A DNA stretch of 32,000 nucleotides, from the NCBI RefSeq assembly GCF_900079115.1, contig NZ_LT549890.1, forward strand, positions 330,001 through 362,000, written 5' to 3'. The DNA is from Saccharolobus solfataricus (GTDB lineage: Archaea > Thermoproteota > Thermoprotei_A > Sulfolobales > Sulfolobaceae). The notes beneath the pieces are model-generated. The model did no database searches. It was not told the DNA's origin and saw nothing but the letters and a program-made list of their open reading frames with translations. The position numbers were made by a program, and so were the translations under genes. Below are positions 4,702-21,510 of the stretch, in pieces (positions within the stretch are counted from its first letter, which is position 1; the number at the start of each line of letters is the position of its first letter).

Positions 4702-7700
4702 ATGAATAAAACCCTCGGTCTAATCCTAACCTCTGTATTCCTACTATCCACTTTAGGCATAATAACTGGATTTGTAATACCAACACAAGCTGCCAACTCT
4801 AATGATGCGGCAATATACACAATACCTAGTGTTACTAGTGTAAGTAATACTTCTAATATAGTCATTAACCTATTCTTTAACGCTACTTCAAACTCTACAG
4901 TAGGCGCACAAGCATCTGCATTTAATTATGGTTTAGCAATTAACTATACTTTAGATGCCATAACGTTTACCGTGGTACTTCCAAGTGGTACGTCCTATCC
5001 ACTAATAAAATTAAATGCTAAAAATTTTGCAAATTATGGATATTATGATCTAGCTCACAATTCAATAGTTTTACTATTAAATACTACTGCTTCATCCACA
5101 GCCAAAGAATTGGCATATAGTTATGAGCAAAGTATTGGAGTAACTCCTTCAGCAAGTTATAAAATTTATAATTATACTAATAAAACCGTAAATGTTAATC
5201 AATACATGAATGAGCTACCTCTATCAATGTTGATATATATGGCAACTAATGGAAAATATAACAATTTAGCATCATTACCAGTAGGTACTAAACTAGAATT
5301 CACTTACGCTGGTGTCACTTATATCATAGCAGTGTCCCCAACCGTGAAATTAGTAGGTGAGTTATTAAACCCATTGTATACAGCAAATTCAAAGATGTTA
5401 CCTGGCACTAACTACGCAGTTGGAAGAAGCAACATAACCGTAGCAGTTTACGATAACTTGATTACAACTACCACATCACCATTTAACTTTACCTTAACCT
5501 ATTCCTCATTAGCGCCAGCCCTAATATACTGGTTTGTAATAGCTAATACAACATATACTAATAATGGTGCTTCTACACCAACAGCTAGCTTCCAGGCTCC
5601 ACCGTTTAAACAATACTTCCCATCTAATAGTACCATATTATATTCCGCAGCACCAACTAAAAGTTCGATCCTAATGTTTAATGGACAAATGAACGTCACT
5701 GCACATGAAAACGTAACGCTAACCTTACAAACCGGTACTAACATATACACATCTCCAAACTTCAACGTGACTCCACCAGGTAATTATACTTTCTCTGGTA
5801 AGTTAGGTGTTGGATTCAATGGCTTCATCTATCAAAACGGTAGTGCAACATTAACTGCAACTATATTTAATGGTACAATTAATTTCTTCTTTAGCAGTAC
5901 TGGCCAGAAAGCCGCATTTACTTTCTTCCTAGTTCCGATAGTTCCAATAAACTTAGGCGATAATAATGGTGCAACAGTGATCTATAATGGGGTATCTCTC
6001 AACACTGGCTTCCCACAAGTAGTAGTAATGTTTAACATAACTGGTAATTTCACTAAATCTGGAAGTAATTATCTATTATACGGATCAGTATATGAGGCTG
6101 AGTTAAAACCGTTAGGCTCTACTCAATTACAAAAATTAGCTGGTGCAACTGATAGTACACAGTTCGTGGGTAACTTAATTTCATCCGCTTCATCACCTTT
6201 AGTATCTTACTTCAACTACGGTGAATCTACAACAACAATAACAGGAACATCATTATCCTTCACAGTGCTAATGCCATTAAAGTTCATTGTTGAGAGATTA
6301 GGCTACATCTATCTAGTAACCTTCCATATATGGGGTCCGTCAGCTACTGTAACTGTAACTGGTGTTGACTACCACGGTACCCAAATTGCACTAGGTTCCT
6401 TTAGAGCATATGTAGCACTTCCAAGCTTCTATACACTGCCAAAAACTCCATTGGTTGGCTTAACTTGCGACAACATGTATACACTAGCACAAGTAAGTGA
6501 TGCTGGCTCAGTCCTAGAGACCTCCACGGCGAATTCCAATGCTAATAATGCAACTGTTATTGGACCCTATGACTTAATGTCCAATGCTGGTCTACACGTG
6601 GCAATTTACAATGGTTCTAAACTAGTGAAGAGTGGGAATTTAGGCCTATTACCCAATGCGACAACAGCTCCTATAACCACTACTATAACGCTAAATGGAC
6701 AAACAGTTGCATTAACTTACTCTTCTGCTCCAACAGCGATATACCCAGTTGATTTCAAGTTTGAGCCAGGATTCAGTTACAGTGTTACAACTAACGTGAT
6801 ATATAATACTTCAATTCCAACCTATGTTGTGACTGTATATATGCCATTGAAATACATACTACAAACTAAAATCGTAATGTGGTATGTGAGTCCTGACTAT
6901 GCTGCTTACTTCTATTATTCAAGCACTGGACAGTATCAAACTAGTAACGTAACCTTAACGTTTGCAAATGTTACTCCAGAATTAGTAATGCCACAAGTAT
7001 TCCCGGTTGGCAAACTATACATGCCCTTCGGAATTAATGATCCGTATTACGTGTTCTACAGCAGTATAAGTATAGGTCCGCAGAGTGGAGTAATTGAAGC
7101 TGTTGAGAATGGATTTAACGTAGGTAACATTACTTCAATTACTGTAGAACTAAATGGTATGAACGAGTCAATAGTATTATCACCACTAAATGTTAGTAAA
7201 TTATTAATATCAAGTAACTTAGGTGAAGTATCTCAATGCAGCCCATTATTTACAACTACACTATTCAACATATCCGCGTTAGCTTCACTATTAGGTTTAC
7301 CAAACGCAGCTGCTCTAAATGGAAGCTATTTATATGTAACCTATCACGATATAATCAGTGGAGCTTATGTGACAAACAGGACCTTACTGGTGGTTGGTCA
7401 ATTCTACGTGATGCCACCAACTACTCCAGGTTCGGTTGAATGGATATTAACTGCAAAGTACATTAATGCTACAACGGGTATTCCAGTTGAGATAAGCTAT
7501 GCTGTAGTGCAACAGCCAAGTGCTAAGGTAGTTGATATAAACGCAGCTAATGCAAGCATTACACAAATACAAGTAACTGGTGTGAAGATTGTTAGCAAGT
7601 ACGCTACTGTGACAGTTATGTATAATCCAAGTAATGCAAGCACAATCGTATACATGAACGGTATGTTTGTAGCTTCATATGGTGGTAATCTAATATCTTC

Positions 7701-8397
7701 GCTATCAGAGACGTCAACATTTGGAGTATATTACGGAGCAGTAGTTAACTTATATGTAGCGACTGGTACATTAAGTAGTCCTAACGGAACAATGTATGTA
7801 GTATTAGGATCTCATAAAGTTGCAGTAGGTACTGCTAATCTATACACTTACGCTGGATACCACTTCGGTCCATACACAGCCCTACCACTAGTATCTAATG
7901 TAACATTTACAGTACAAGACCCAGTAACTCATGCGACACTCACTGGTCAAACCACCTTAGGTGCATTTAACAACACTCCAATTAGGTTAGCTCCATTAGG
8001 TGTATCAATACCTCAAACTGCCCAATATAAAGTGTTCTACTACTATAGCACACCTTTAGTATTAAGCCCAACAAGTCAGTACATAGTGTTGTCTGTGACA
8101 AGTGTTATATCCTATCCATATCCATTCTACATAGAAACTGTATCGTTCTTAGGTTATAACGTAACTACTGGAACTCCAGTGCCTGGCACTCCAGCATTCC
8201 AGACAGTATATTCGCCATCCTTAGGTCCTGGTGTAGTATTACAAGTACCTGTTCAGTCATATCAGTTCATAAGCTTATCGACTCCAAGTGAGCCTCATAC
8301 AGTAGTAATGTTTGCAGTGCCGTTTGCAGGCGGTCCAGCAATATCTCTATACCCGACATTCTTAGTATACGCTAATGTGACGGCGATTTCAAGTTAA
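4702..8397 (+). CDS. slaA: large S-layer lattice protein SlaA
   Basis: 1231 aa. It has an N-terminal signal peptide (MNKTLGLILTSVFLLSTLGIITGFVIPTQA/ANS). It is very rich in Thr/Ser/Asn/Val/Tyr, with well over 30 N-x-S/T sequons by eye and almost no charged residues. It is followed directly by slaB. The sequence matches my memory of Sulfolobus SlaA. Confidence 0.9.
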   Translation: MNKTLGLILTSVFLLSTLGIITGFVIPTQAANSNDAAIYTIPSVTSVSNTSNIVINLFFNATSNSTVGAQASAFNYGLAINYTLDAITFTVVLPSGTSYPLIKLNAKNFANYGYYDLAHNSIVLLLNTTASSTAKELAYSYEQSIGVTPSASYKIYNYTNKTVNVNQYMNELPLSMLIYMATNGKYNNLASLPVGTKLEFTYAGVTYIIAVSPTVKLVGELLNPLYTANSKMLPGTNYAVGRSNITVAVYDNLITTTTSPFNFTLTYSSLAPALIYWFVIANTTYTNNGASTPTASFQAPPFKQYFPSNSTILYSAAPTKSSILMFNGQMNVTAHENVTLTLQTGTNIYTSPNFNVTPPGNYTFSGKLGVGFNGFIYQNGSATLTATIFNGTINFFFSSTGQKAAFTFFLVPIVPINLGDNNGATVIYNGVSLNTGFPQVVVMFNITGNFTKSGSNYLLYGSVYEAELKPLGSTQLQKLAGATDSTQFVGNLISSASSPLVSYFNYGESTTTITGTSLSFTVLMPLKFIVERLGYIYLVTFHIWGPSATVTVTGVDYHGTQIALGSFRAYVALPSFYTLPKTPLVGLTCDNMYTLAQVSDAGSVLETSTANSNANNATVIGPYDLMSNAGLHVAIYNGSKLVKSGNLGLLPNATTAPITTTITLNGQTVALTYSSAPTAIYPVDFKFEPGFSYSVTTNVIYNTSIPTYVVTVYMPLKYILQTKIVMWYVSPDYAAYFYYSSTGQYQTSNVTLTFANVTPELVMPQVFPVGKLYMPFGINDPYYVFYSSISIGPQSGVIEAVENGFNVGNITSITVELNGMNESIVLSPLNVSKLLISSNLGEVSQCSPLFTTTLFNISALASLLGLPNAAALNGSYLYVTYHDIISGAYVTNRTLLVVGQFYVMPPTTPGSVEWILTAKYINATTGIPVEISYAVVQQPSAKVVDINAANASITQIQVTGVKIVSKYATVTVMYNPSNASTIVYMNGMFVASYGGNLISSLSETSTFGVYYGAVVNLYVATGTLSSPNGTMYVVLGSHKVAVGTANLYTYAGYHFGPYTALPLVSNVTFTVQDPVTHATLTGQTTLGAFNNTPIRLAPLGVSIPQTAQYKVFYYYSTPLVLSPTSQYIVLSVTSVISYPYPFYIETVSFLGYNVTTGTPVPGTPAFQTVYSPSLGPGVVLQVPVQSYQFISLSTPSEPHTVVMFAVPFAGGPAISLYPTFLVYANVTAISS

Positions 8398-8438: not shown

Positions 8439-9632
8439 TTGGTTGTGAAAAAAACATTCGTTTTATCTACCTTGATATTAATTTCAGTTGTAGCGTTAGT
8501 GAGTACAGCAGTTTATACATCTGGTAACGTAACTTTTTACAGTCCTAGTGTAAATAATCAAATTTACTATGTTGGAAAATCAGTAACAATTGATGCTGTT
8601 GTTCCTCAACAATTTGCTGGTCAAGGAGCTGTTATAAACTTATTCTTCCCTAATTCAACGCTAGCTGCTAGTATTCCTACTACCGTTAATGCTACTGGTG
8701 GAATTTATGTGCCCAATGCTTATACATTTCCTCACGTAATAGGAATTTGGCAAATTACTGTTGAAGTTACTGGTGGTGTGGCTGTAGGTACAATTGACGT
8801 TAATGTTACAACTCCCGCAGTAGCTCCAATCATATTAACTCTACAAAACTTAGCTATGTATGAGAATACTTACCCACAGTTTATAGAGTTTGCTAATGGT
8901 ATCATAACTTCAGTGGTTATGCAAAACGGTACTGTGAACATAATGGGTTACGTCTATAATAGTACAGTAGGTCCATTATCTGGTGCTACTGTTTCCTTAA
9001 CTCTTAATATACCCACTGTTGGGACTAAAACGTTATCTACGACAACTGCTTCAAACGGGTCGTTCATGTTAAGTTTCCAAGTTCCTCAATTATCAACCAC
9101 TTTAACGCTAATATCTTCCTACTTGATCAGTGGTAGCTTAACGGTATCTTATGGAGTCCATACTGTAACTTATAACGTATTTATAACCGCAATTCCGAAC
9201 TATCTTAGTGTAATTAATGCGTTAAATAATGAAGTTAGTACGTTAAGGAGTGAGATCTCATCGTTAAATAGCACAATCGCTAGCTTAAATAAGAGTTTAG
9301 CTAATGCAAATACTCAGATATCCAATTTACAGAGTGAGATAACCACATTGAATAGCGAAATAGGAAAGTTAAACAGTACTGTAGGATCGCTAAGTACTCA
9401 ACTTAGCTCACTGTCTTCACAGTATAATACTTTGAGCAGTCAAGTTACTGCACTAAATGGTAAAATAAGCAATCTAAGTACAAGTCTCAGTACTTTAAAC
9501 GGAGAGGTTGCTAGCTTAAGGAGTACTGTTAGTAGTTTAACTACAATAGCCTATGGCGGAATTATAGCTGGCATAATAGGTCTAATTGTTGCAATAGTAG
9601 CCATAGTACTAGTAATGAGGAGAATAAGTTAA
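8439..9632 (+). CDS. slaB: small S-layer anchor protein SlaB
   Basis: 397 aa. It has an N-terminal signal/TM segment and a Thr/Val-rich beta domain. A long Ser/Leu/Asn coiled coil (aa 256-367, nt ~9204..9539; repeats such as LNSxIxSL) follows. A single C-terminal TM anchor (IAYGGIIAGIIGLIVAIVAIVLV) ends in MRRIS. Confidence 0.9.
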   Translation: MVVKKTFVLSTLILISVVALVSTAVYTSGNVTFYSPSVNNQIYYVGKSVTIDAVVPQQFAGQGAVINLFFPNSTLAASIPTTVNATGGIYVPNAYTFPHVIGIWQITVEVTGGVAVGTIDVNVTTPAVAPIILTLQNLAMYENTYPQFIEFANGIITSVVMQNGTVNIMGYVYNSTVGPLSGATVSLTLNIPTVGTKTLSTTTASNGSFMLSFQVPQLSTTLTLISSYLISGSLTVSYGVHTVTYNVFITAIPNYLSVINALNNEVSTLRSEISSLNSTIASLNKSLANANTQISNLQSEITTLNSEIGKLNSTVGSLSTQLSSLSSQYNTLSSQVTALNGKISNLSTSLSTLNGEVASLRSTVSSLTTIAYGGIIAGIIGLIVAIVAIVLVMRRIS

Positions 9633-12907: not shown

Positions 12908-13468
12908 TTAATCTTTAACTATTGTTATTAAGGAATATCCTTTTTTTCTCTTTATGGATTCAATTTTAAATCTTTTACTGAATATTTTCTCTATATTTTC
13001 TTCACCCTTATATGCTATCAACTGTATGAATCCCTTTTCAACTAATCTATCATAGGCTTCGGCTTCAAGCTTCTTTAGAAAATCTACTCCTTTAGAAAGA
13101 GGAGGGTTAGAATAAATTGCGGTAAATTTAACGTCGATAGGAATGTTATCAAAGATATCTGATTTCACTATTATTGTCCTATTTTCAACCCCATTAAGTT
13201 TTGCATTTTTCTTAGCCAGCTTAATTGCAATGTAGTTGACATCTACCATGTAGACCTTAAGGTTAGGATTTTTCAATGCTAGGTAGATTCCTATGGGTCC
13301 GTAGCCACAACCAACGTCTGCTACAGTTCCGTTTTCCGCTACTTTTATGTTTTCCAAAAGTATCCTTGTTCCCAAATCTAGTTCCTTTTTTGAAAATATC
13401 CCCGGTGAGGATAGAAGGGTTAGAGGTATACCGTTAATTACTTCAAAAATTATGTACTCATGACTCAT
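12908..13468 (-). CDS. class I SAM-dependent methyltransferase (small 'MTS' RsmC/RlmG-like domain)
   Basis: 186 aa. Motif I is VADVGCGYGPIG and motif IV is YSNPPL (an NPPY-type amino-group methylase motif). Its start overlaps the cbf5 stop by 11 nt, so it is probably co-translated in the rpl14e-cbf5 operon. Confidence 0.7.
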   Translation of the reverse strand: MSHEYIIFEVINGIPLTLLSSPGIFSKKELDLGTRILLENIKVAENGTVADVGCGYGPIGIYLALKNPNLKVYMVDVNYIAIKLAKKNAKLNGVENRTIIVKSDIFDNIPIDVKFTAIYSNPPLSKGVDFLKKLEAEAYDRLVEKGFIQLIAYKGEENIEKIFSKRFKIESIKRKKGYSLITIVKD

Positions 13469-14499
13469 GTTTTTTCCATGCTTTTGGATATATATCTCTC
13501 TGCATAAAAACTCTACTTAAGTTGACTACTATTCCCTTTTTTGCGTTTTCCAATTCTTCGCTGTCCATTAGTGCGTTGCCTGTCGCTACTAATTCCCCTT
13601 TAAGCGTTAATACTGCGACTGTATCGTTCTTTTTAAAGTTCTGATAAGCTACTACTCCAGGTACTGCTAGTTGCGCACCATAAGCTAATGCGTTTACAGC
13701 TGAGTCTTCTATTACAATTTTTGGAATTTCACAAGTTGCGAATTCCATTGGTATAAGTACTCTTCTTAGTTCTGTTTCGTCTTTGCAGTTCTTGTATAAG
13801 TATATTGCTTCAGAAAGTTCGTGTAATTTCACTAGATTTGTGGATTCTGTGAAAATCCCGGATCTAGTTCTTCTTAGCTCTCTCATATGAGCTCCACAAC
13901 CGTAAATTATTCCTATATCATGACATAATTTTCTCATGTACGTCCCGGAGTCACAGTTTACTCTAAGTAATACTAACTTCTTGTCCATGTCTAGAATTTC
14001 TATATCATATATTCTTCTAATTCTTAGTCTCCTTTTGACTGATGATCTAACTGGTGGTCGTTGGTATATTTCTCCTTTAAATGAACTTATTATCTTTGCC
14101 AATTCCTCTTTATTGTATTCACAGTGAACTTGCATTACACATACGTACTCTTTTCCTCCTTTACTTATATAGTTCATTATTTTAGTTGCGTTCTCTATTC
14201 CTATTGGTAACACACCGGTAACTTTAGGATTACCCCGCCCAATGAATGGGCTCTAGGGTCCCCCCATGTCCTGCTTTGGTAACGTTTAACATCTTTTTAA
14301 CCCAATACGCTACTTCATGGCTCGTGGGCCCTGGAGGTTTATCAAGGTTTATTATTGAGTTTTTGATATGTATCTCTATTGGTCTTTTTTCTGGATAATA
14401 TCCGTATTTATCTGATGTTTCACTATCCTTCCTTATCTTCCATTCATTTTTATATCCACAAAAATTATCTATTTTGTAAATAAAATCATTTAAAATCAT
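13458..14499 (-). CDS. cbf5: H/ACA RNP pseudouridine synthase Cbf5 (TruB family plus PUA). Two exons: 14499..14253 and 14230..13458. The spliced product is 339 aa
   Basis: The upstream ORF ends ...KAGHGGTL-EPIHWAG*. The downstream frame reads PKVTGVLPIGIENATK... Removing 22 nt restores GHGGTLDPKVTGVLPIG, which carries the TruB/Cbf5 catalytic Asp. The C-terminal PUA-like region is AVNALAYGAQLAVPGV. Confidence 0.85.
14231..14252 (-). other. 22-nt bulge-helix-bulge intron in the cbf5 pre-mRNA (a substrate of the tRNA-splicing endonuclease type)
   Basis: The minus-strand RNA is GGGA-CCCU-[AGA]-GCCCA-UUCAU-UGGGC-GGGG-[UAA]-UCCU. The outer helix is GGGA/UCCU and the central 4-bp helix is CCCU/GGGG. 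There are two 3-nt bulges and an inner hairpin. Cutting after the second nucleotide of each bulge gives CUA G|AU CCU, which is in frame. Confidence 0.8.
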
Positions 14500-14835: not shown

Positions 14836-17577
14836 TTAGTGCCAGTATTTTCTTGTTCTTATAAATCTTTTCTCTTCATCTATTAAGGCCATGTAAAACT
14901 CATTTTCTCCTTCATTTAATTTACTCAATACTTTGCCTAAATTACTTGGTCCAACTCCATTAGTTGCTAATGCTATTAGGCTGTACTTACCGTAATCTGG
15001 GAAGAAGGAGGCAACTCTCTTCAAGTCTTCTAACTGTCTTCTCTCCTTACTTGTTAATTTCTCACCTTTTATTGCTTTTCTCACTATCTTCACGGAATCG
15101 CTATCATCTGGATTAGTTGCAGTTAAGAAAATTGAGGAACATTTGGGGCATTTGCTAGGTGAGTTAATTATAGAGTATTTTCCCTCCCACCCACATGAGA
15201 GACAGATTAATTTCAGCTCCTTGTTTTCTAATCTCTTTTTGAAAATTTCAATCATTAATGGTTTTTCTTCTTTATCGAACGAGGTGTAGTTAAGGATTTT
15301 ATCTAGAAATTGTTTAGCTAAGGGGGACGCTTCGTAAACCTCTACTATTTTCCAGTTGTAATTCTTGAGTTCCTTTATTATTTCTACATCATAATTTTTG
15401 ACTAATAATTCCTTAACTGCTTCTTCTCCAATTATTGTATCTCCATAAGCCTTTATAATGGATGAGGTAAGCGTTATTTCCTTTTCTGGGTCTATCATCC
15501 CAAACCTCTTTATCTCAACCAATAATTTCCACTTGAATTGCGGACTTTCTTTAATTCCCTTCTTTAATATTTCAATTATTCTGTCTATAGGAGTAGAATT
15601 TAGCGTAGAGACAATTTTTTCCATATCATTTTTAGTTATTGGCAGTACAGAAGATATTGCGATGTGATATGGATCAGCCCTATAAGTCGTTTTGGTCTGT
15701 TTTTCTACGTCTAACATAACTGAAATTATGGCACCAAGCGTGTTGTTTCCTCTTGAGCCGAATGGTGAATGCACTATTATTAAATTATTCTTTACTATTT
15801 CAACAAGGATTAGATCTGGTCTTAGTTCTGGATATCCTCTTTTCATGTATTCTCTAACTACTTCAGCTAAGCTATTATCTTCAGTTTCCCTTTTTTCCTT
15901 CTCCACTGCGTAAATATACTCGTAGACTTTCCTAGCTATCTCTTTCTCAACTGGAATTGATTCTCCGAACCAACTAGGCAATATTCCGTTTTTTAGCTCA
16001 GCCCTTTCCACAAATATTCTGTCGTTCTCTATGGATACGACTTTCCATAGTCTACTTCCTAAAATGAATACACTATCTTCATCTAGTGTGACTACGAAAT
16101 CTTCGTCTAAGGTACCTATTTTCATGTTGGTAGCATGGTCAATTACTATATAACTTCTAATGGAATCTGGTATCATATTAGTAGTGTAATAATATTTCCA
16201 AATTCTTCTACTTGGAAATAAGCTTCCGTCTTCTCTTCTTTTAACTATTTTTGCGCTCTCTAATAATTCTATAACGTTTTCGAACATCTCATCGGTGAAG
16301 TTCTCGAAATAAAATGAATTGCGAAGAATCTCCATCATTTCTTTAGGGTTTTTATAACCTTCTAAAACCATTCCCGCTATTTCATGTGCTGCAACGTCAA
16401 GTGGGTTTTCTTCAAACAGGGGTTTTTCCAAATAACCAGAATATAATGCTTCAATTATTGCTCTGCACTCTAAAATATCGAAAAGGTCCTCTGAGGGTAT
16501 AACGTAACCTATAGACGTTCTACCTATTTTATGTCCACTTCTTCCGACTCTTTGAATTAACCTAATTACTTGTCTCGGTGACATGTATTGGACAACTAGA
16601 TTAATTCTACCGATATCAATACCCAATTCTAAGCTCGAGGTTGCGACTATAGCGTCTATATTACCGTTTTTGAAGTCGTTTTCAGTTTTTATTCTAATTT
16701 CTCTTGATAATGAGCCGTGATGAGAAGCTATTTTTAAGGAATAGTTACTCATGAGTTGGTTTGCTATGAATTCGCTAGTTTCCCTAGTATTTGTAAATAT
16801 TATAATAGGTTTGTTGTTTTTTATAATTTCGTTAAGTTTCTCAAGTCTCGCAATTGTATCTGGTCTTAATCCCAACTTTACTGCTAAATCCGCATCTTTC
16901 TTTTCAACCTTAGGGAGTATTAAATCCACTTTTATATCCTTTATTGCGTTGATATTCGCTATTTCGACCTCTCCCTCTCTATCTAAGTACCTTTTTGCTA
17001 TTTCAACATCACCAATAGTAGCTGAAATTCCTATTAATTGAATTTTATTTCTTGTTGCTATTTTTTTGATCCTTTGGATTAGTACAGAGAGTTCTATTCC
17101 TCTTTTCTCATCTAACATTTCTTGTAATTCATCTATTATTATCCATTTCAGATTGGTAAAGTACTTCCTAAAAGTATCGTTTAGCACTAAGTAAAGTAAC
17201 GTTTCTGGCGTTACTAATAATACGTCAGGAGGGTTATCCAAAATTTCCTTCCTTTCTTTCTGAGAGGAATCTCCGTGTCTTACGTTAACACTAATATTAA
17301 AGGCTTCACCTAGCCTTCTTAACCTTAACTCAAGGTCTCTATTTAGCGCTCTTAAGGGAGTTATATAGAGTGTTGAGATTTTTTCAGGTTTATCTTTAAA
17401 GATAGTATAAAAAATTGGTAATATCGCTGCCTCAGTTTTGCCATACCCCGTTGGTGCTATGATTAAAACATTCTTTCCAGATAGTACTTTTGGTATTGCT
17501 ATTTTTTGGATTGGCGTTAAATCTTCATAGCCAAGTTTCTTCAGTCTTACCAAGAATTCATTGGTTACATTTATCAT
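14836..17577 (-). CDS. Lhr-type superfamily-2 ATP-dependent helicase with a C-terminal DEAD/H-associated region and zinc ribbon
   Basis: 913 aa. Motif I is [11 protein letters not shown] and motif II is IIDELQEM (Q where DExH helicases have H). Other motifs: [18 protein letters not shown], and motif [11 protein letters not shown] late CxxC...CxxC is present (CLSCGWEG...CPKCSS). Confidence 0.85.
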
Positions 17578-17609
17578 TACTTTGGCAATAATGTAATACT
17601 AAAGAGGAG

Positions 17610-17616
17610 TATATAA
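17610..17616. promoter_or_regulatory. Palindromic TATATAA in the 39-bp divergent region between the helicase and ATPase genes
   Basis: It is about 33 nt upstream of the helicase ATG (17577, minus strand), which fits that gene. It abuts the ATPase ATG (17617), so the ATPase must use a different promoter or a downstream start. Confidence 0.3.
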
Positions 17617-19335
17617 ATGTATGAGAAGAGACACATTGTTGCTAATATATTAATGCTTATTGTAGCTTATCTAGTTGATAATTTAATGTATTATTTGACA
17701 TCAGCAGGTAATTTAAGCCAGTTAGTAAATAATCTGTCTACATTACTATTAATTATTCCTATATTAGTAGTGATATTTTCAGTATTCATAACTTTAATGT
17801 TTTCATCCATAATAGTCTCATTCCTTTATTACGTAACAGCCATAGCTTACGCGTTAGTAATTTCTAATAACGTGGGCTCTACCCTTATTTTATCTACGTT
17901 CTTAAATTTGTTAGGATATTATGCTCTTGCTACTATTATTATCGGAGTTATATTGGGAATTTCTAGAAGAAGTTTTCCAGATGAGATTTTGTTAAATGTT
18001 TCACGGCTTAATGTGAGTGTTAATAAGAAGAATGCTATCTATGGGGGATTGATTGTTTTAATTTCTTTCCTGATTTTCTATGAGGTTTTATCCAGTCCAT
18101 TCTTGTTTGTAGGTAGCATAGCATCATTCACCTTACTATTCTTTATTTCAAATGACTCTATTTTTCCGTTAATTATCTTGTCGTGGTTCTCATTTCCATT
18201 CCTATTTACGCAATTATCTGCGTATTCTGTTAACGAGAAGGGGATAGAGCTCGGTTCTATTGAGGGAGTGTTGGCTCCTTCATTAGTTAATAGGATATCT
18301 AATACTAAGTATGGTTGGAAGAAATTTTCTAACTTGAAGTTTGTTCTAAACTTTGATGGAGCAAAGAACTATAACATAGTGATACTAGGTACAAGTGGAT
18401 CTGGAAAGTCTAGTTTAGCTAAGAGTATTATTGGGAAATTTACAGATGCTAGTTTCTTGGTTTTTGATCTACATGGAGAGTATGAGATTGAAAAAGCAGA
18501 AAGAATTGACATCTCTAAGAATTCATTAAATCCTCTTTCGTTAAATGGCGCATCTCCTAGGCAAAGGGCATTGGAAGTGGCTTATATGCTAAGGTCCATT
18601 TTTAAACTTGGTAATTTACAAACTATAGATATTTTTAATATTATAATGGATACCTATGCCGAAAAGGGAATTGATGAAAACGATGAGAGCAGTTGGAATT
18701 TAACACCACCTACTTTTAGGGATGTATTATTAATGATAGAGAGAAGGAAGAAATTAGTTGATAATTCACAAGACCTTTCTAGGCTATCTTCAATTGAACC
18801 GTATATACAATTTTTGGCTAATCAAATTTTAAGTGGTAATAGCTTAAATATGAAAAAAATTTTCGAGAGTAATATAATTCTGGATTTTTCTAAAGTTACT
18901 ACAGACGAGCTAAAATATGTTTTAATTGAAACGATACTTAGAGATTTTAGAAATTACATATATAGGCGTGGGATATCTGGTTTGTGGAAATTTTTGGTTA
19001 TAGACGAGGCTCCTTTTATACTCAGTAAAGAGACTGGATTAGAGATAGTTGAGAGATTATTCGCAGAGGTTAGGAAGTTCGGAGTCGGAATGATTCTTAT
19101 ATCTCAATTAACTGAGAATATAGAAAATATTGTCCAAAATTCGAGTTATATCTTTATATTTAATGTTGTTGAGCCAAAAGAGTTAGATTACTTAAGTAGG
19201 GTGTTAAGTGGAAGCGACAGAGATAAATACGAGGCTATTTATCAAGCTATTCGATCTTTAGAAAGGGGTTACGTGGTTACTGTAAGCGGGGATAACAGAG
19301 CTATACTTTTAGTAAAGCTTAATTCTTTAAAATAA
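17617..19335 (+). CDS. polytopic membrane domain (about 7 TM) fused to a HerA/FtsK/VirB4-superfamily P-loop ATPase (DUF87-like); function unknown
   Basis: Residues ~7-200 form consecutive hydrophobic helices. Walker A is NIVILGTSGSGKSS (nt 18388..18411), followed by FLVFDLHGEY (a HerA/VirB4-type signature). Walker B is KFLVIDEAPF, followed by GMILISQ. Confidence 0.7.
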   Translation: MYEKRHIVANILMLIVAYLVDNLMYYLTSAGNLSQLVNNLSTLLLIIPILVVIFSVFITLMFSSIIVSFLYYVTAIAYALVISNNVGSTLILSTFLNLLGYYALATIIIGVILGISRRSFPDEILLNVSRLNVSVNKKNAIYGGLIVLISFLIFYEVLSSPFLFVGSIASFTLLFFISNDSIFPLIILSWFSFPFLFTQLSAYSVNEKGIELGSIEGVLAPSLVNRISNTKYGWKKFSNLKFVLNFDGAKNYNIVILGTSGSGKSSLAKSIIGKFTDASFLVFDLHGEYEIEKAERIDISKNSLNPLSLNGASPRQRALEVAYMLRSIFKLGNLQTIDIFNIIMDTYAEKGIDENDESSWNLTPPTFRDVLLMIERRKKLVDNSQDLSRLSSIEPYIQFLANQILSGNSLNMKKIFESNIILDFSKVTTDELKYVLIETILRDFRNYIYRRGISGLWKFLVIDEAPFILSKETGLEIVERLFAEVRKFGVGMILISQLTENIENIVQNSSYIFIFNVVEPKELDYLSRVLSGSDRDKYEAIYQAIRSLERGYVVTVSGDNRAILLVKLNSLK

Positions 19336-19650
19336 ATGGTATCTGGTATGTCAACAGATGAGGAAAAGGAAGGGACTAGTGACGAGGAGGTTAATGAGGA
19401 AAAGGAAGTTGAGGAGACATCGGAAGACGAGTTTCCAAAACTTTCAATACAAGATATAGAGCTACTAATGAGAAATACTGAAATTTGGGATAACTTGTTG
19501 AACGGTAAGATTACTTTGGAGGAAGCTAAGAAGTTGTTTGAGGATAATTACAAGGAATATGAAAAGAGGGATTCTAGGAGGAAAGCTAAAAAGGCTGTTA
19601 GTAAAAAAGTTAAAAAGACAAAGAAAAAAGAGAAGAGCGTAGAGGGTTAA
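19336..19650 (+). CDS. rpo13: RNA polymerase subunit Rpo13 (Sulfolobales-specific)
   Basis: 104 aa. It has an acidic N-terminus, a helix-turn-helix core (FPKLSIQDIELLMRNTEIWDNLLNGKITLEEAKKLFEDNY) and a Lys-rich tail (RRKAKKAVSKKVKKTKKKEK). This matches my memory of Rpo13. The ATG directly follows the ATPase stop (TAAATG). Confidence 0.7.
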   Translation: MVSGMSTDEEKEGTSDEEVNEEKEVEETSEDEFPKLSIQDIELLMRNTEIWDNLLNGKITLEEAKKLFEDNYKEYEKRDSRRKAKKAVSKKVKKTKKKEKSVEG

Positions 19651-19654
19651 AATT

Positions 19655-20404
19655 ATGTTTAAGATTGTTTACCCTAATGCAAAAGACTTTTTCTCTTTTA
19701 TAAATTCCATTACGAACGTTACTGATTCCATTATTCTAAATTTCACTGAAGATGGAATATTTTCGAGACATTTGACTGAAGATAAAGTGCTAATGGCGAT
19801 TATGAGAATACCTAAAGATGTTTTAAGCGAATATAGTATTGATAGCCCTACTTCAGTTAAATTGGATGTCTCTTCAGTAAAGAAGATTCTTTCAAAAGCC
19901 AGCTCAAAGAAAGCTACGATCGAGTTGACAGAGACTGATAGTGGATTAAAGATTATAATAAGAGATGAGAAGAGTGGGGCGAAAAGTACAATTTATATTA
20001 AAGCAGAGAAAGGTCAAGTTGAACAACTAACTGAACCGAAAGTTAATTTGGCCGTGAATTTCACTACAGATGAAAGTGTACTTAATGTAATAGCAGCTGA
20101 CGTAACTTTGGTTGGAGAAGAGATGAGGATTTCAACAGAGGAGGATAAGATAAAGATAGAGGCTGGTGAGGAGGGGAAAAGATATGTCGCATTTCTTATG
20201 AAGGATAAACCCCTAAAGGAACTTTCTATAGATACATCGGCATCATCTTCTTATAGCGCGGAAATGTTTAAGGATGCTGTAAAAGGTCTAAGAGGTTTTT
20301 CGGCCCCAACAATGGTAAGCTTTGGAGAAAATCTCCCTATGAAAATTGACGTAGAAGCAGTAAGTGGGGGTCATATGATCTTTTGGATAGCGCCAAGGTT
20401 ATAA
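19655..20404 (+). CDS. PCNA1: DNA sliding clamp subunit PCNA1
   Basis: 249 aa, from MFKIVYPNAKDFFSFINSITNVTDSIILNF to ...GGHMIFWIAPRL. It has the PCNA two-domain fold signature and is recognised as the PCNA1 paralog of the Sulfolobus heterotrimer. Confidence 0.9.
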   Translation: MFKIVYPNAKDFFSFINSITNVTDSIILNFTEDGIFSRHLTEDKVLMAIMRIPKDVLSEYSIDSPTSVKLDVSSVKKILSKASSKKATIELTETDSGLKIIIRDEKSGAKSTIYIKAEKGQVEQLTEPKVNLAVNFTTDESVLNVIAADVTLVGEEMRISTEEDKIKIEAGEEGKRYVAFLMKDKPLKELSIDTSASSSYSAEMFKDAVKGLRGFSAPTMVSFGENLPMKIDVEAVSGGHMIFWIAPRL

Positions 20405-21510
20405 ATTATTTTATTACCTCTTTTTATAATTCCAATATATTTATTATTTGAGTTTAATATGCCCGTGCTATCTCCCTCAAGGACTAGTAACCCAGCTTCA
20501 ATAGGGTTCCCCTCTTCTATCCATCCTCTAATTCCTAAAAACTTATAAGCGTTAATAGTACTTGCCTTCAATATTTGTAGTGAGTGGTCAGAAAGTGGAT
20601 CTTGAACCCTTGAAATTAGAAGCAAAGTCTCCATTTCTTTCCACATGTCTGGATCTAATACTCCCCCATTATCAGTTCCAATCAATAGATTAACCCCACT
20701 CTTTAACCCATTTATTACCTTTGGTATCCCTACAGAGAACCACAGATTACTCCTTGGACAATAAACTATGGATGCTTTCCTATATCTCATAATATCAATT
20801 TCCTCTTCACTTAAATAAGTACCATGTATTATTAGGTTTGGTTCATATCTTTTCATAACGTACTCTAAGTCATCTCTTAACCAATGTTTTATGGTCTCGG
20901 ATACGTGAACAGACCTAATTTTATTGTTAAATACGTGTTTTATTAACTCTATTTCAGATGTGCTAAAAGCACTAGATAACCCATAACCGTCAGCTATTTT
21001 ATATAAACTATTTAAATTACGGATATCCTTGAACTCATCTTCTTCAAGTCTTCCTAGAAAGTAATACTTCACCCCGTTCGTAGCCATTTTCTTCTTAATT
21101 GTACTTGAAATTAAGCTTCCCTCTAATCCTTGCTCTCTAAAGTCTATCATTACATTTGAACCTAGTTCTCTCGCTCTTAAGACAAATCTCTCTATGGAGT
21201 TCATGATGGATTCTTTTGTGTTTTTTGCAAAACATTCGTATTTAACGCTATGCGGATCTCCAACGACTTTACTTATTGGCATATTGTATCCCATTTCTTG
21301 GCATATGAAGTCGGCAGAATGCACATGAGCGTTAACTATCCCAGGGATTAAGATTCCGTTTTTAAACGTTATGCCTTCAGATGAGAAACCATTTCCTATA
21401 TGAGTTATTATACCTTCTTCTATTTCTATATTAACGTTCTCTCTTATTTCTAGCTCTTCTCCTACGAGAGCTATTCTTACATTTAGTGTTATTCTTCCTC
21501 CATATGCCAA
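20371..21510 (-). CDS. amidohydrolase-superfamily enzyme of the deaminase/chlorohydrolase type
   Basis: The metal and catalytic motifs occur in the canonical order: NAHVHS (HxH), HVSET (HxxE, typical of deaminases in this superfamily), HGTYL and GTDNGG. The start is TTG 21510, overlapping the arfA stop by 22 nt. The 3' end overlaps the PCNA1 3' end by 34 nt (convergent). Confidence 0.75.
   Translation of the reverse strand: MAYGGRITLNVRIALVGEELEIRENVNIEIEEGIITHIGNGFSSEGITFKNGILIPGIVNAHVHSADFICQEMGYNMPISKVVGDPHSVKYECFAKNTKESIMNSIERFVLRARELGSNVMIDFREQGLEGSLISSTIKKKMATNGVKYYFLGRLEEDEFKDIRNLNSLYKIADGYGLSSAFSTSEIELIKHVFNNKIRSVHVSETIKHWLRDDLEYVMKRYEPNLIIHGTYLSEEEIDIMRYRKASIVYCPRSNLWFSVGIPKVINGLKSGVNLLIGTDNGGVLDPDMWKEMETLLLISRVQDPLSDHSLQILKASTINAYKFLGIRGWIEEGNPIEAGLLVLEGDSTGILNSNNKYIGIIKRGNKIIYNLGAIQKII

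Follow-up and report, generated by a model that had tools for sequence, protein, structure and literature searches.

The locus examined here, in a window of 32,000 nucleotides from Saccharolobus solfataricus (contig NZ_LT549890.1, positions 330,001 to 362,000), raises the question of what an ATPase fused to a large membrane domain (hereafter, the TM-ATPase) does in the immediate company of a repair helicase, an RNA polymerase subunit and a sliding clamp. The reading favored below, to which a probability of about 0.42 is attached, is that of a membrane-embedded hexameric DNA motor that works with the divergently encoded helicase aLhr1. The features of the locus are collected in Table 1.

Table 1. 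Features of the TM-ATPase locus, in coordinates of the window.
Feature	Position	Strand	Details
aLhr1 helicase	14836..17577	-	913 aa; DEAD, Helicase_C, WH_Lhr, DEAD_assoc, C-terminal Zn-ribbon
Divergent promoter region, aLhr1/TM-ATPase	17578..17616	.	39 bp, shared
TM-ATPase gene	17617..19335	+	572 aa, ATG start, TAA stop; Saccharolobus solfataricus
Polytopic membrane domain	17617..18219	+	residues 1-201; hydropathy, AlphaFold2 (AF2) models, conservation
Long beta-hairpin	18244..18348	+	residues 210-244, joins membrane domain to ATPase; G213 invariant
HerA/FtsK-superfamily P-loop ATPase domain	18364..19320	+	residues 250-568
Walker A VILGTSGSGKS	18379-18411	+	residues 255-265
FLVFDLHGEY motif	18454-18483	+	residues 280-289
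NPLSL..SPRxR helical insert	18529-18567	+	
Walker B KFLVIDEAP, catalytic Glu E464	18988-19014	+	residues 458-466
Arginine-finger motif E484-x-R486-K487	19066-19077	+	
Sensor-1 Q497	19105-19107	+	
rpo13, RNA polymerase subunit Rpo13	19336..19650	+	104 aa; Pfam PF12136, 70.7 bits
PCNA1 sliding-clamp subunit	19655..20404	+	NCBIfam NF002218, 356.8 bits vs cutoff 267

The open reading frame represents a real gene: its product matches a S. solfataricus protein at 100% identity, and full-length orthologs extend to ~22% identity. Both the frame and the motifs quoted for it in the preliminary description of the locus were confirmed in position. The family corresponds to arCOG00285, with M164_1755 as the ortholog in S. 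islandicus M.16.4; in S. solfataricus, the tag of the locus is probably SSO0395, as judged from SSO0394, which is aLhr1 (PMC10003305). Other probable orthologs are SiRe_1604 and, in S. acidocaldarius, Saci_0815. Among the relatives found, the family comprises ~80 clusters at 50% identity, all from Sulfolobales/Desulfurococcales-type Thermoprotei. The gene is chromosomal and vertically inherited, occurring in single copy at a fixed housekeeping location across two orders. No full-length relatives were detected in PLSDB plasmids, INPHARED phages or IMG/VR, and an origin in mobile elements or viruses was rejected; the absence of the family from plasmids, phages and viral contigs argues for a host function. 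In S. islandicus, M164_1755 is non-essential (Tn-seq). The literature, queried with locus tags and the arCOG number, yielded no mention and no functional description of this unnamed gene, as the preliminary description had maintained; S. islandicus tables annotate the ortholog as ‘HerA helicase’.

The protein begins with ~200 hydrophobic residues; a long beta-hairpin then leads into an ATPase of the HerA/FtsK superfamily that is complete, with Walker A, Walker B, the arginine finger and the sensor-1 Gln all present. The catalytic residues are all invariant in 20 orthologs that are 26-87% identical to the window protein. These include G258, S260, G261, G263, K264 and S265 of the GTSGSGKS motif (residues 258-265) and E464 and A465 of the VIDEA motif (residues 461-465), in which D463 is near-invariant. 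E484, R486 and K487 are likewise invariant and are followed by a strand (residues 490-496 in the AF2 model) that ends at the invariant Q497. The HerA/FtsK clade is defined by a sensor-1 Gln with an arginine finger just upstream (PMC10853773), and the TM-ATPase carries both in this arrangement. Its earlier placement in the HerA/FtsK/VirB4 superfamily is upheld by matches to Pfam DUF87 (39.7 bits, above cutoff) and the PADLOC DndH C-terminal domain (87 bits), by PDB profile matches to 7es4 (1.8e-14) and S. solfataricus HerA (4d2i, 3e-9), and by Foldseek matches of the ATPase domain to 7es4 (6e-18), HerA and VirB4. The closest relative of the ATPase in these comparisons is the C-terminal motor of DndH/DptH, followed by HerA and VirB4, rather than classical HerA; the nearest relatives, with S. 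solfataricus HerA and the VirB4/CedD-type profiles included, are DNA motors.

The DndH/DptH C-terminal motor (7es4) is the best match in both sequence and fold, over residues 250-561 and at ~21-25% identity, and shares with the TM-ATPase the helical insert NPLSL...PRxxA...LGxxQ, the arginine finger and the sensor-1 Gln. DndH models, however, align with the TM-ATPase at this motor only (positions ~1333-1666). DndH is a ~1700-aa bacterial restriction protein with SWI2/SNF2-C, TRD, inactive methylase and REase regions, none of which occurs in the TM-ATPase, and it has no TM domain, whereas the 572-residue TM-ATPase is membrane-embedded. No dnd genes were found in the window. Identity with DndH/DptH was therefore rejected, the multidomain architecture and the dndFG partners being absent. 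The top match to a restriction protein nevertheless brings up a role in defence against viruses or plasmids, in which an Lhr-type helicase and a ‘captured’ HerA/FtsK motor would intercept incoming DNA at the membrane. Capture of HerA/FtsK ATPases is a recurrent defence theme (PMC10853773), and matches of the Lhr protein to SngC and BrxHI, both defence helicases, reach 1e-91 to 3e-95. Such a role is very improbable for a single-copy gene that is inherited vertically at a fixed housekeeping location, with a conservation pattern typical of core genes, that encodes no nuclease or other effector domain and is absent from plasmids and viruses; moreover, aLhr1 is a near-universal archaeal repair helicase, whose knockouts give DNA-damage rather than infection phenotypes (PMC10003305).

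HerA (S. solfataricus 4d2i) has the fold, the catalytic motifs and the DUF87/‘HerA central domain’ match in common with the TM-ATPase, but it contains a HAS-barrel N-domain and has NurA as a partner; the TM-ATPase has neither and is membrane-embedded. No Pfam match to the HAS-barrel (PF09378) was obtained, and the NCBIfam HerA_Thermprot model scored 42 bits against a cutoff of 800. The two proteins belong to different arCOGs (00280 for HerA), and in S. islandicus HerA is essential, in contrast to the TM-ATPase. The herA operon of that species occupies M164_0062-0065, at a distance from M164_1755, and nurA, mre11 and rad50 are not neighbors of the TM-ATPase gene. The protein is therefore not HerA proper.

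The same organisms possess two membrane-anchored HerA/VirB4-type ATPases with related ATPase domains, CedB and CedD, the latter described in 2025 (PMC11868833, PMC11823120). These have short TM anchors and a VirB4-like N-domain (PMC11868833), whereas the TM-ATPase combines a ~200-aa polytopic domain with a beta-hairpin only (residues 202-249 in the AF2 model), and fold alignments cover its ATPase half only. The NCBIfam CedD model scored 42.9 bits against a cutoff of 600, and the CedB model was not among the significant matches of the window protein; a divergent family member, P0208, reached 56.7 (CedD, cutoff 600) and 52 (CedB, cutoff 700). Scores so far below the curated cutoffs, together with the missing VirB4-like N-domain, led us to reject an identity with CedB or CedD. 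Since both of these carry TM segments, the fusion seen here is not unprecedented in these organisms, and the earlier premise, by which characterized archaeal members either are soluble or work with separate membrane partners, is outdated. What distinguishes the TM-ATPase is a large polytopic TM domain without detectable relatives and the lack of a VirB4-like or HAS-barrel N-domain.

VirB4 itself is among the best structural matches (4ag5/4ag6, target-normalized TM-score 0.77-0.78 in Foldseek). VirB4-type NCBIfam profiles score as high on the TM-ATPase as those of HerA or CedD, and P0208 scores 82 bits against VirB4_plasma. VirB4 energizes pilus biogenesis and is not demonstrably a DNA pump, which, for so close a structural relative, counts against a DNA motor. 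A VirB4-like ATPase that assembles or extracts membrane proteins instead of acting on DNA, e.g., in the insertion or dislocation of CedA1-type pilins or of surface-filament subunits, would be consistent with these scores, with the large TM domain, which fits membrane-embedded substrates, and with the linkage of CedA1 pilin genes in several lineages (see below). It is considered unlikely, as the VirB4 N-terminal domain is missing, the DndH DNA motor is the closest relative, and the gene is linked most tightly, and universally, to a DNA helicase rather than to pilin genes; the family also persists where ced genes are unlinked.

In overall design, the TM-ATPase resembles FtsK/SpoIIIE and Streptomyces TraB, members of the same superfamily with an N-terminal multi-TM region and a C-terminal hexameric RecA-fold DNA pump. 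FtsK/SpoIIIE differs in its alpha and gamma (KOPS-binding wHTH) domains, which the TM-ATPase lacks; the latter has a very short linker and an unrelated TM domain, and it ends directly after the ATPase core in the AF2 model. The FtsK_SpoIIIE profile (PF01580) scored 14.1 bits against a cutoff of 24, and over the P-loop only, so that identity with FtsK/SpoIIIE was rejected as well.

The hydrophobic character of the N-terminal region was confirmed by Kyte-Doolittle analysis and in the AF2 monomer model (pLDDT 85), in which helices span residues 2-29, 33-62, 65-82, 88-117, 137-157, 161-176, 180-191 and 193-201. According to the positive-inside rule, the K/R-rich N-terminus and the loop at 116-138 are cytoplasmic; since the ATPase is necessarily cytoplasmic too, the predicted topology comprises six membrane crossings and a short helical hairpin (180-201), which may be re-entrant or interfacial. 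The earlier count of ~7 TM helices was thus approximate, while the hydrophobic N-terminus on which it was based stands. The hairpin bears the near-invariant S189 and the family-invariant W190 and P194, and G166 in the membrane domain is also invariant. With invariant residues of its own (G166, W190, P194), the TM domain is more than a passive anchor. It has no Pfam match, and the separate structure search proposed in the preliminary description revealed no relative in the PDB (Foldseek, best E 0.55). A channel of the CedA/VirB6 type was rejected on the same evidence and on a comparison with CedA by hhalign (probability 0.08%, E 0.66). When the TM domain alone was searched against an index of 5.8 billion proteins, one truncated fragment was recovered, hydrophobic words having probably swamped the candidates.

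The beta-hairpin (strands E210-221 and E232-244 in the AF2 model) belongs to the ATPase module, since it is retained in a sister group of soluble proteins without the TM domain, for which the match to the family profile starts at about position 197-205. The C-terminal domain of this soluble group, considered as a candidate PD-(D/E)xK nuclease that would have favored DNA as the substrate, displays an invariant pattern, E-H...PD...ExExxGxK, but found no support in PDB, Pfam or NCBIfam.

The divergent neighbor, aLhr1, is a genuine repair gene, as its knockout in S. acidocaldarius causes sensitivity to UV, 4-NQO, H2O2 and cisplatin (PMC10003305). Each of the 26 distinct orthologous loci examined, which comprise 24 genome loci and the two more divergent metagenomic loci L070 and L072, has aLhr1 divergently adjacent to the TM-ATPase gene; the set returned by the genome-contig search did not include S. 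solfataricus, S. islandicus, S. acidocaldarius or Metallosphaera. Identity between the ATPases of these loci falls to 21-30%. The neighborhood is thus preserved far beyond close relatives, and more strongly than the preliminary description had expected; the divergence across 39 bp that it reported for the window is exact. In seven of the eight Sulfolobales loci in which both start codons could be placed, the spacer measures 38-42 bp.

Within the shared promoter of the window, TATATAA occupies positions 17610-16 and a GGAG element lies upstream of the ATG of the TM-ATPase; TAATACT (17594-17600), which is 17-23 nt away from each start codon, reads as the aCcr1 box AGTATTA on the complementary strand. 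In the study that defined this motif, Lhr (SiL_1597) is a box-bearing, repressed gene; it is repressed by aCcr1 in S. islandicus together with cdvA and segAB, and the S. acidocaldarius homolog is listed as non-cyclic (PMC9976892). A box in the middle of the shared promoter, the FtsK-like order of TM region and motor, and the occurrence of the family in Sulfolobales/Desulfurococcales-type lineages would all suit an analogue of FtsK/SpoIIIE that, in Sulfolobales and Desulfurococcales, removes chromosomal DNA from the ESCRT/Cdv division site or segregates it there. The box, however, is exact in the window, reduced to a 6-nt core in L001 and absent from the other Sulfolobales loci, so that it is not a family feature, and a conserved cell-cycle box was rejected as a family trait. 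With the S. acidocaldarius homolog non-cyclic, the TM-ATPase non-essential, the FtsK_SpoIIIE score below threshold, and neither alpha/gamma domains nor a long linker, a division-site role is quite unlikely.

On the downstream side, rpo13 starts at the base following the TM-ATPase stop codon (0-nt gap) and is probably co-transcribed with it. In 24 of 25 loci, the next ORF after the TM-ATPase is of the Rpo13 type, the gap measuring between -20 and +91 nt. PCNA1 begins 4 nt after rpo13, is preceded by a GAGGG Shine-Dalgarno-like element, and is probably the third gene of the transcription unit; the PF12136 and NF002218 matches bear out the earlier observation that rpo13 and PCNA1 abut the ATPase gene on the same strand. 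A PCNA gene lies downstream on the same strand in 20 of 24 genome loci and is inverted in L015; L070 and L072 likewise carry one. This arrangement, and the finding of the family only in Sulfolobales/Desulfurococcales-type lineages, where Rpo13 also occurs, may point to a role in transcription or replication through Rpo13 and PCNA1, in which the TM-ATPase, together with aLhr1, would resolve R-loops or transcription-replication conflicts, or would tether active chromatin at the membrane. Such a role is improbable: the order kept with housekeeping genes may reflect co-expression alone, rpo13 is itself non-essential, and none of the known mechanisms for these processes calls for a polytopic ATPase in the membrane. 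That the TM-ATPase gene is universally co-oriented with rpo13 and pcna1, both housekeeping genes, suggests that it is expressed constitutively, unlike the ced genes, which would count against a DNA motor serving DNA exchange.

In three deeply separated clades of the family, an operon of the cedA1-cedA-cedB-like type adjoins Lhr or lies within 3.4 kb of it. In L015 and L072, Lhr has the ced genes as its direct neighbors; in L009, L011-L014 and L016, they lie ~3.4 kb or less away. The linked CedA1 scored 131 bits (cutoff 100) and is accompanied by a CedA-like protein and a CedB-like ATPase; in L072, PINA and Hjc are encoded within 10 kb. No ced genes were found near the TM-ATPase in the Sulfolobales loci, this window included, nor within 8 kb in the Desulfurococcaceae-type clade (L018, L020-L024). 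The ancestral order appears to have been cedB-cedA2-cedA-cedA1-Lhr <> TM-ATPase-rpo13...PCNA. The portion from cedB to the TM-ATPase is still intact in Pyrodictiaceae-type and other deep lineages. The ced linkage in other lineages had not been seen in the preliminary description.

Taken with family membership, which together with gene context suggests DNA as the substrate and hence a putative DNA translocase, these linkages lead us to favor the membrane-embedded motor introduced above. Six subunits would form a ring ATPase, with the cytoplasmic motor ring directly against the membrane, since the linker is only a beta-hairpin, and beneath a bundle of ~36 TM helices. The ring would most likely move or hold DNA at or across the cytoplasmic membrane. 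As its most likely partner, the 3'-5' repair helicase aLhr1, expressed from the shared promoter, would unwind or feed the DNA substrate, through a coupling that may be physical or functional. Given the ancestral ced-Lhr-TM-ATPase setting, the process served would probably be recombinational repair linked to intercellular exchange of chromosomal DNA. Against this reading stand the non-essentiality of the gene, the unlinked ced genes in Sulfolobales and in L018 and L020-L024, and the absence of the TM-ATPase from the published UV/TFB3-induced genes screened for DNA transfer (PMC11868833, PMC11823120). No expression or mating data on the TM-ATPase were found in the literature or in the supplement of the Ced paper.

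A more far-reaching proposal, regarded as rather unlikely, is that the TM-ATPase and aLhr1 constitute the module still missing on the donor side of chromosomal DNA exchange in Crenarchaeota. Here, aLhr1 would produce single-stranded DNA with no relaxase involved. The membrane motor would deliver this strand to the partner cell's Ced/Ted-type apparatus, either by exporting it or by passing it on at the membrane, and the cedB-cedA2-cedA-cedA1-Lhr <> TM-ATPase cluster would be what is left of a single, complete conjugation-like machine.

In Sulfolobales, the repair of UV damage relies on the exchange of chromosomal DNA, and the import side of this process is known (CedA, CedA1, CedA2, CedB, CedD and CedE). 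According to both 2025 papers, neither the exporter nor the enzyme that generates the transferred strand has been identified (PMC11868833, PMC11823120). The favored motor would be a specific candidate for the missing part, as a conserved membrane protein of a DNA-pump superfamily that is locked to aLhr1 and lies beside ced genes in several deep lineages. It is also genetically tractable, the TM-ATPase and aLhr1 genes both being non-essential, and donor/recipient mating assays exist, one of them a CRISPR-based test of DNA export and import (PMC11868833) and another based on pyrE (PMC11823120). New in this work are the universal pairing with aLhr1, the linkage to rpo13 and the ced linkage in three clades. 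Even without the connection to Ced, the family would add a third class to the membrane-bound HerA/FtsK ATPases of Crenarchaeota, provide a partner for the poorly understood aLhr1, and draw attention to an unexplained, near-universal ATPase-rpo13 gene pair.

The gene 17617-19335, whose product joins a membrane domain to a HerA/FtsK-superfamily ATPase (arCOG00285; hereafter TM-ATPase), is a real feature of the window, and its product is 100% identical to an S. solfataricus "ATP-binding protein" at NCBI. The motifs quoted in the preliminary description were all recovered (VILGTSGSGKS at residues 255-265, FLVFDLHGEY at 280-289 and KFLVIDEAP at 458-466), as were the neighbours it named, i.e., Lhr across exactly 39 bp, rpo13 and PCNA. 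The remaining genes of the window are of a housekeeping nature (TmcA, a methyltransferase, cbf5, L14e and riboflavin genes). Two consecutive ORFs fit in size and order the S-layer pair SlaA/SlaB of S. solfataricus and are candidates for it. In cbf5, excision of 22 nt (cccattcattgggcggggtaat) rejoins the conserved GHGGTLE/PKVTGVLPIG, and the break is presumably the known archaeal mRNA intron of crenarchaeal cbf5.

Features of the window and of compared loci (L numbers)
Feature	Position	Strand	Remarks
TM-ATPase gene	17617-19335	+	572 aa
Lhr-type helicase (aLhr1)	14836-17577	-	39 bp from TM-ATPase gene
rpo13	19336-19650	+	first base next after TM-ATPase stop codon
PCNA gene (pcna1)	19655-20404	+	4 nt past rpo13
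1231-aa protein ORF	4702-8397	+	no Pfam match at E<1e-5
397-aa coiled-coil protein ORF	8439-9632	+	next after 1231-aa ORF
cbf5 (pseudouridine synthase)	13458-14499	-	two ORFs, different frames; junction ~14229-14250
PAPS-reductase-like gene	L009, L011-L014, L016 (about 1270-4650 in L012); L070 1095-3059		

The same layout of the protein emerged from hydropathy and from an AlphaFold2 prediction based on 20 orthologs (mean pLDDT 85, pTM 0.68). In the model, four long N-terminal helices (residues 2-29, 33-62, 65-82 and 88-117) are followed by a K/R-rich loop (116-138), two further helices (137-157 and 161-176), a short broken helix pair (180-191 and 193-201) and a long beta-hairpin (210-221/232-244) that precedes the ATPase. 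With the ATPase in the cytoplasm, the positive-inside rule points to a topology of six membrane crossings, the additional hairpin probably being re-entrant or interfacial. Within the membrane domain, invariance among orthologs is confined to G166, W190 and P194, with S189 near-invariant; all but G166 fall in the helical hairpin region. A Pfam search with the membrane domain gave no match, and a separate model of this domain (pLDDT 80) had no significant counterpart in the PDB (best E 0.55, TM-score ~0.15). A fused CedA/VirB6-type channel was rejected when the domain profile was aligned by hhalign with a CedA TM-domain profile made from the loci (probability 0.08%).

All of the catalytic signatures of the HerA/FtsK clade, as defined in PMC10853773, are present and are invariant or near-invariant in orthologs that share 26-87% identity with the window protein: Walker A, D284/H286/E288, Walker B with E464, the Arg finger E484-x-R486-K487, and sensor-1 Q497, which closes strand 490-496. 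The only above-threshold Pfam match was DUF87/"HerA central domain" (39.7 bits), and the NCBIfam models for VirB4-like CD1110, CedD and crenarchaeal HerA each scored ~42-43 bits against cutoffs of 325-800. Relationship is clearest to the DndH/DptH C-terminal motor (a restriction-protein domain), which scored 87 bits in PADLOC, versus 52 bits for the best HerA model; its structure (PDB 7es4) matched at 1.8e-14 by sequence and at 6e-18 by Foldseek, outranking HerA of S. solfataricus (4d2i) and VirB4 (4ag5/4ag6). From this ranking, sequence and predicted structure place TM-ATPase as a distinct branch of the HerA/VirB4/DndH-C radiation. A VirB4-like ATPase serving membrane proteins or pilins is considered unlikely. 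Identity with HerA was ruled out (no HAS barrel, no nurA operon, and arCOG00285 rather than arCOG00280), as was identity with CedB or CedD. Moreover, herA is essential in S. islandicus, in contrast to the TM-ATPase gene.

Among 1.84 billion representatives, searched exhaustively by HMM, 444 proteins fell below 1e-30, of which ~80 clusters at 50% identity (550-666 aa) aligned end to end, including the TM domain. Named members belong to Sulfolobales, Desulfurococcales, Thermosphaera, Pyrodictiaceae or "Thermoprotei archaeon", under generic or wrong labels ("ATP-binding protein", "DUF87", "EcfA2"). No full-length relative was found among the plasmids, phages and viral contigs searched. A role as a defence module is contradicted by vertical inheritance like that of a core gene, and is very improbable. 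The sister group is soluble (550-600 aa) and begins with the hairpin and ATPase, to which a C-terminal extension of ~200 aa is joined; the latter bears an invariant E-H...PD...ExExxGxK pattern, which reads E-H...PD...IEYETGxK in P0176, P0178, P0181, P0186, P0189 and P0196. In sequence this domain possibly resembles a PD-(D/E)xK nuclease; it had no match in Pfam, NCBIfam or the PDB. In the sister-group locus L071, radA lies ~2 kb upstream and Lhr is absent.

The literature, searched by locus tag and arCOG number, contained nothing on TM-ATPase, in keeping with its earlier designation as undescribed. The sole datum found for the family is the Tn-seq of S. islandicus M.16.4, in which M164_1755 ("HerA helicase/ATPase AAA", arCOG00285), Lhr (M164_1756) and rpo13 (M164_1754) are non-essential and pcna1 (M164_1753) is essential (PMC6249222 supplements).

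The aLhr1 gene lies divergently upstream of the TM-ATPase gene in all 24 orthologous loci from reference genomes and in two still more divergent metagenomic loci (L070, L072), among which pairwise TM-ATPase identity falls to 21-30%. The synteny check proposed in the preliminary description thus shows the pairing to be kept far beyond close relatives. The spacer measures 38-42 bp in 7 of the 8 Sulfolobales loci in which both starts could be placed, and 67-140 bp in Desulfurococcales-type loci. The clade-specific linkage appears to be unreported, because a survey of Lhr neighbourhoods, annotated with TIGRFAM profiles only, saw no conservation of aLhr1 context across all archaeal genomes studied (PMC8301817). 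The helicase itself (SSO0394, Saci_0814, SiRe_1605) co-purified with SSB-ssDNA, and S. acidocaldarius knockout cells are sensitised to UV, H2O2 and cisplatin and markedly to 4-NQO, and do not grow at 80 C (PMC10003305).

Midway in the 39-bp spacer is an exact box for the cell-cycle repressor aCcr1 (ccr-2; AGTATTA, minus strand, 17594-17600), 17-23 nt from both start codons, for which ~0.03 occurrences would be expected by chance in 39 bp. This box is the only support for TM-ATPase as an FtsK analogue in Cdv division; it is not conserved (L001 holds the 6-nt core only and the other Sulfolobales loci have none; L010 holds two copies), and such a role seems rather improbable.

Downstream, the directly following same-strand ORF is of the Rpo13 type in 24 of 25 loci (gap -20 to +91 nt), with an acidic N-terminus, a "(S/T)(I/V)xD(I/L)E...TE(I/L)W" helix-turn-helix and a K/R tail, and PCNA is found further downstream in most loci. 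A role tied to transcription or replication via Rpo13 and PCNA is given little weight. The near-universal position of rpo13 next after TM-ATPase extends to Desulfurococcales-type lineages, in which the gene is at the limit of detection by tblastn and Pfam; loci L001-L024, L070 and L072 thereby yield a highly divergent Rpo13 set and a conserved TM-ATPase-rpo13 pair.

On the other side of Lhr, the loci of the most divergent member, P0208 (L068, L069, L072), carry a same-strand run starting with CedA1 (NCBIfam 131 bits, cutoff 100) directly downstream of the helicase. It continues with a protein of 500 aa, best matched by CedA over its N-terminal 190 residues (119 bits), a two-TM ORF of 57 aa, and a DUF87 ATPase of 432 aa for which CedB is the best, though weak, match. 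With P0208-locus proteins as tblastn queries, a CedA1-CedA-CedB-like run was detected immediately beside Lhr in L015 (Pyrodictiaceae), and CedA1 plus CedA ~3.4 kb beyond Lhr in six loci (L009, L011-L014, L016), separated from it only by genes for an RHH protein, an acetyltransferase and a PAPS-reductase-like protein. The latter (654-659 aa) has a Zn-ribbon N-terminus and a ferredoxin-like C-terminus, and its gene is convergent with the adjoining Lhr in several Desulfurococcales-type loci. The ced-linked loci represent three deeply separated clades of the TM-ATPase tree. Read most simply, the arrangement cedB-cedA2-cedA-cedA1-Lhr <> TM-ATPase-rpo13...PCNA would be ancestral and later dispersed in Sulfolobaceae and one Desulfurococcaceae-type clade. 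In L072, PINA (PIN plus PINA_C ATPase) and the Hjc resolvase (19053-21081, ~7 kb from TM-ATPase) add a recombination flavour to the neighbourhood.

In UV-induced exchange, DNA is taken in by the Ced system, whose ATPases CedB and CedD are TM-anchored and HerA/VirB4-like (PMC11868833, PMC11823120); the earlier premise that archaeal members are either soluble or dependent on separate membrane partners does not hold. The DNA-export component and the ssDNA source are called unknown in these two papers of 2025 and in Beltran et al. 2023, none of which mentions Lhr or TM-ATPase. TM-ATPase is probably a hexamer, its motor ring kept close to the membrane by the very short linker, a geometry nearer to that of VirD4/TrwB- or SpoIIIE-type conduits than to that of long-linker FtsK. 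Partnered by aLhr1, which would unwind or load the DNA, it would move DNA at or across the membrane, or hold it there, in a setting of recombination-repair or DNA exchange; this tentative reading is given a probability of about 0.4.

Membrane-anchored motors of the HerA/FtsK superfamily are a known kind, and the fusion as such is not unprecedented. What distinguishes arCOG00285, a new form of this kind, is the orphan polytopic domain, together with a three-way gene linkage (aLhr1, rpo13 and, ancestrally, ced) of unusual depth. Since the TM-ATPase and aLhr1 genes are both non-essential and donor/recipient assays exist, the proposed role in DNA movement at the membrane is directly testable.
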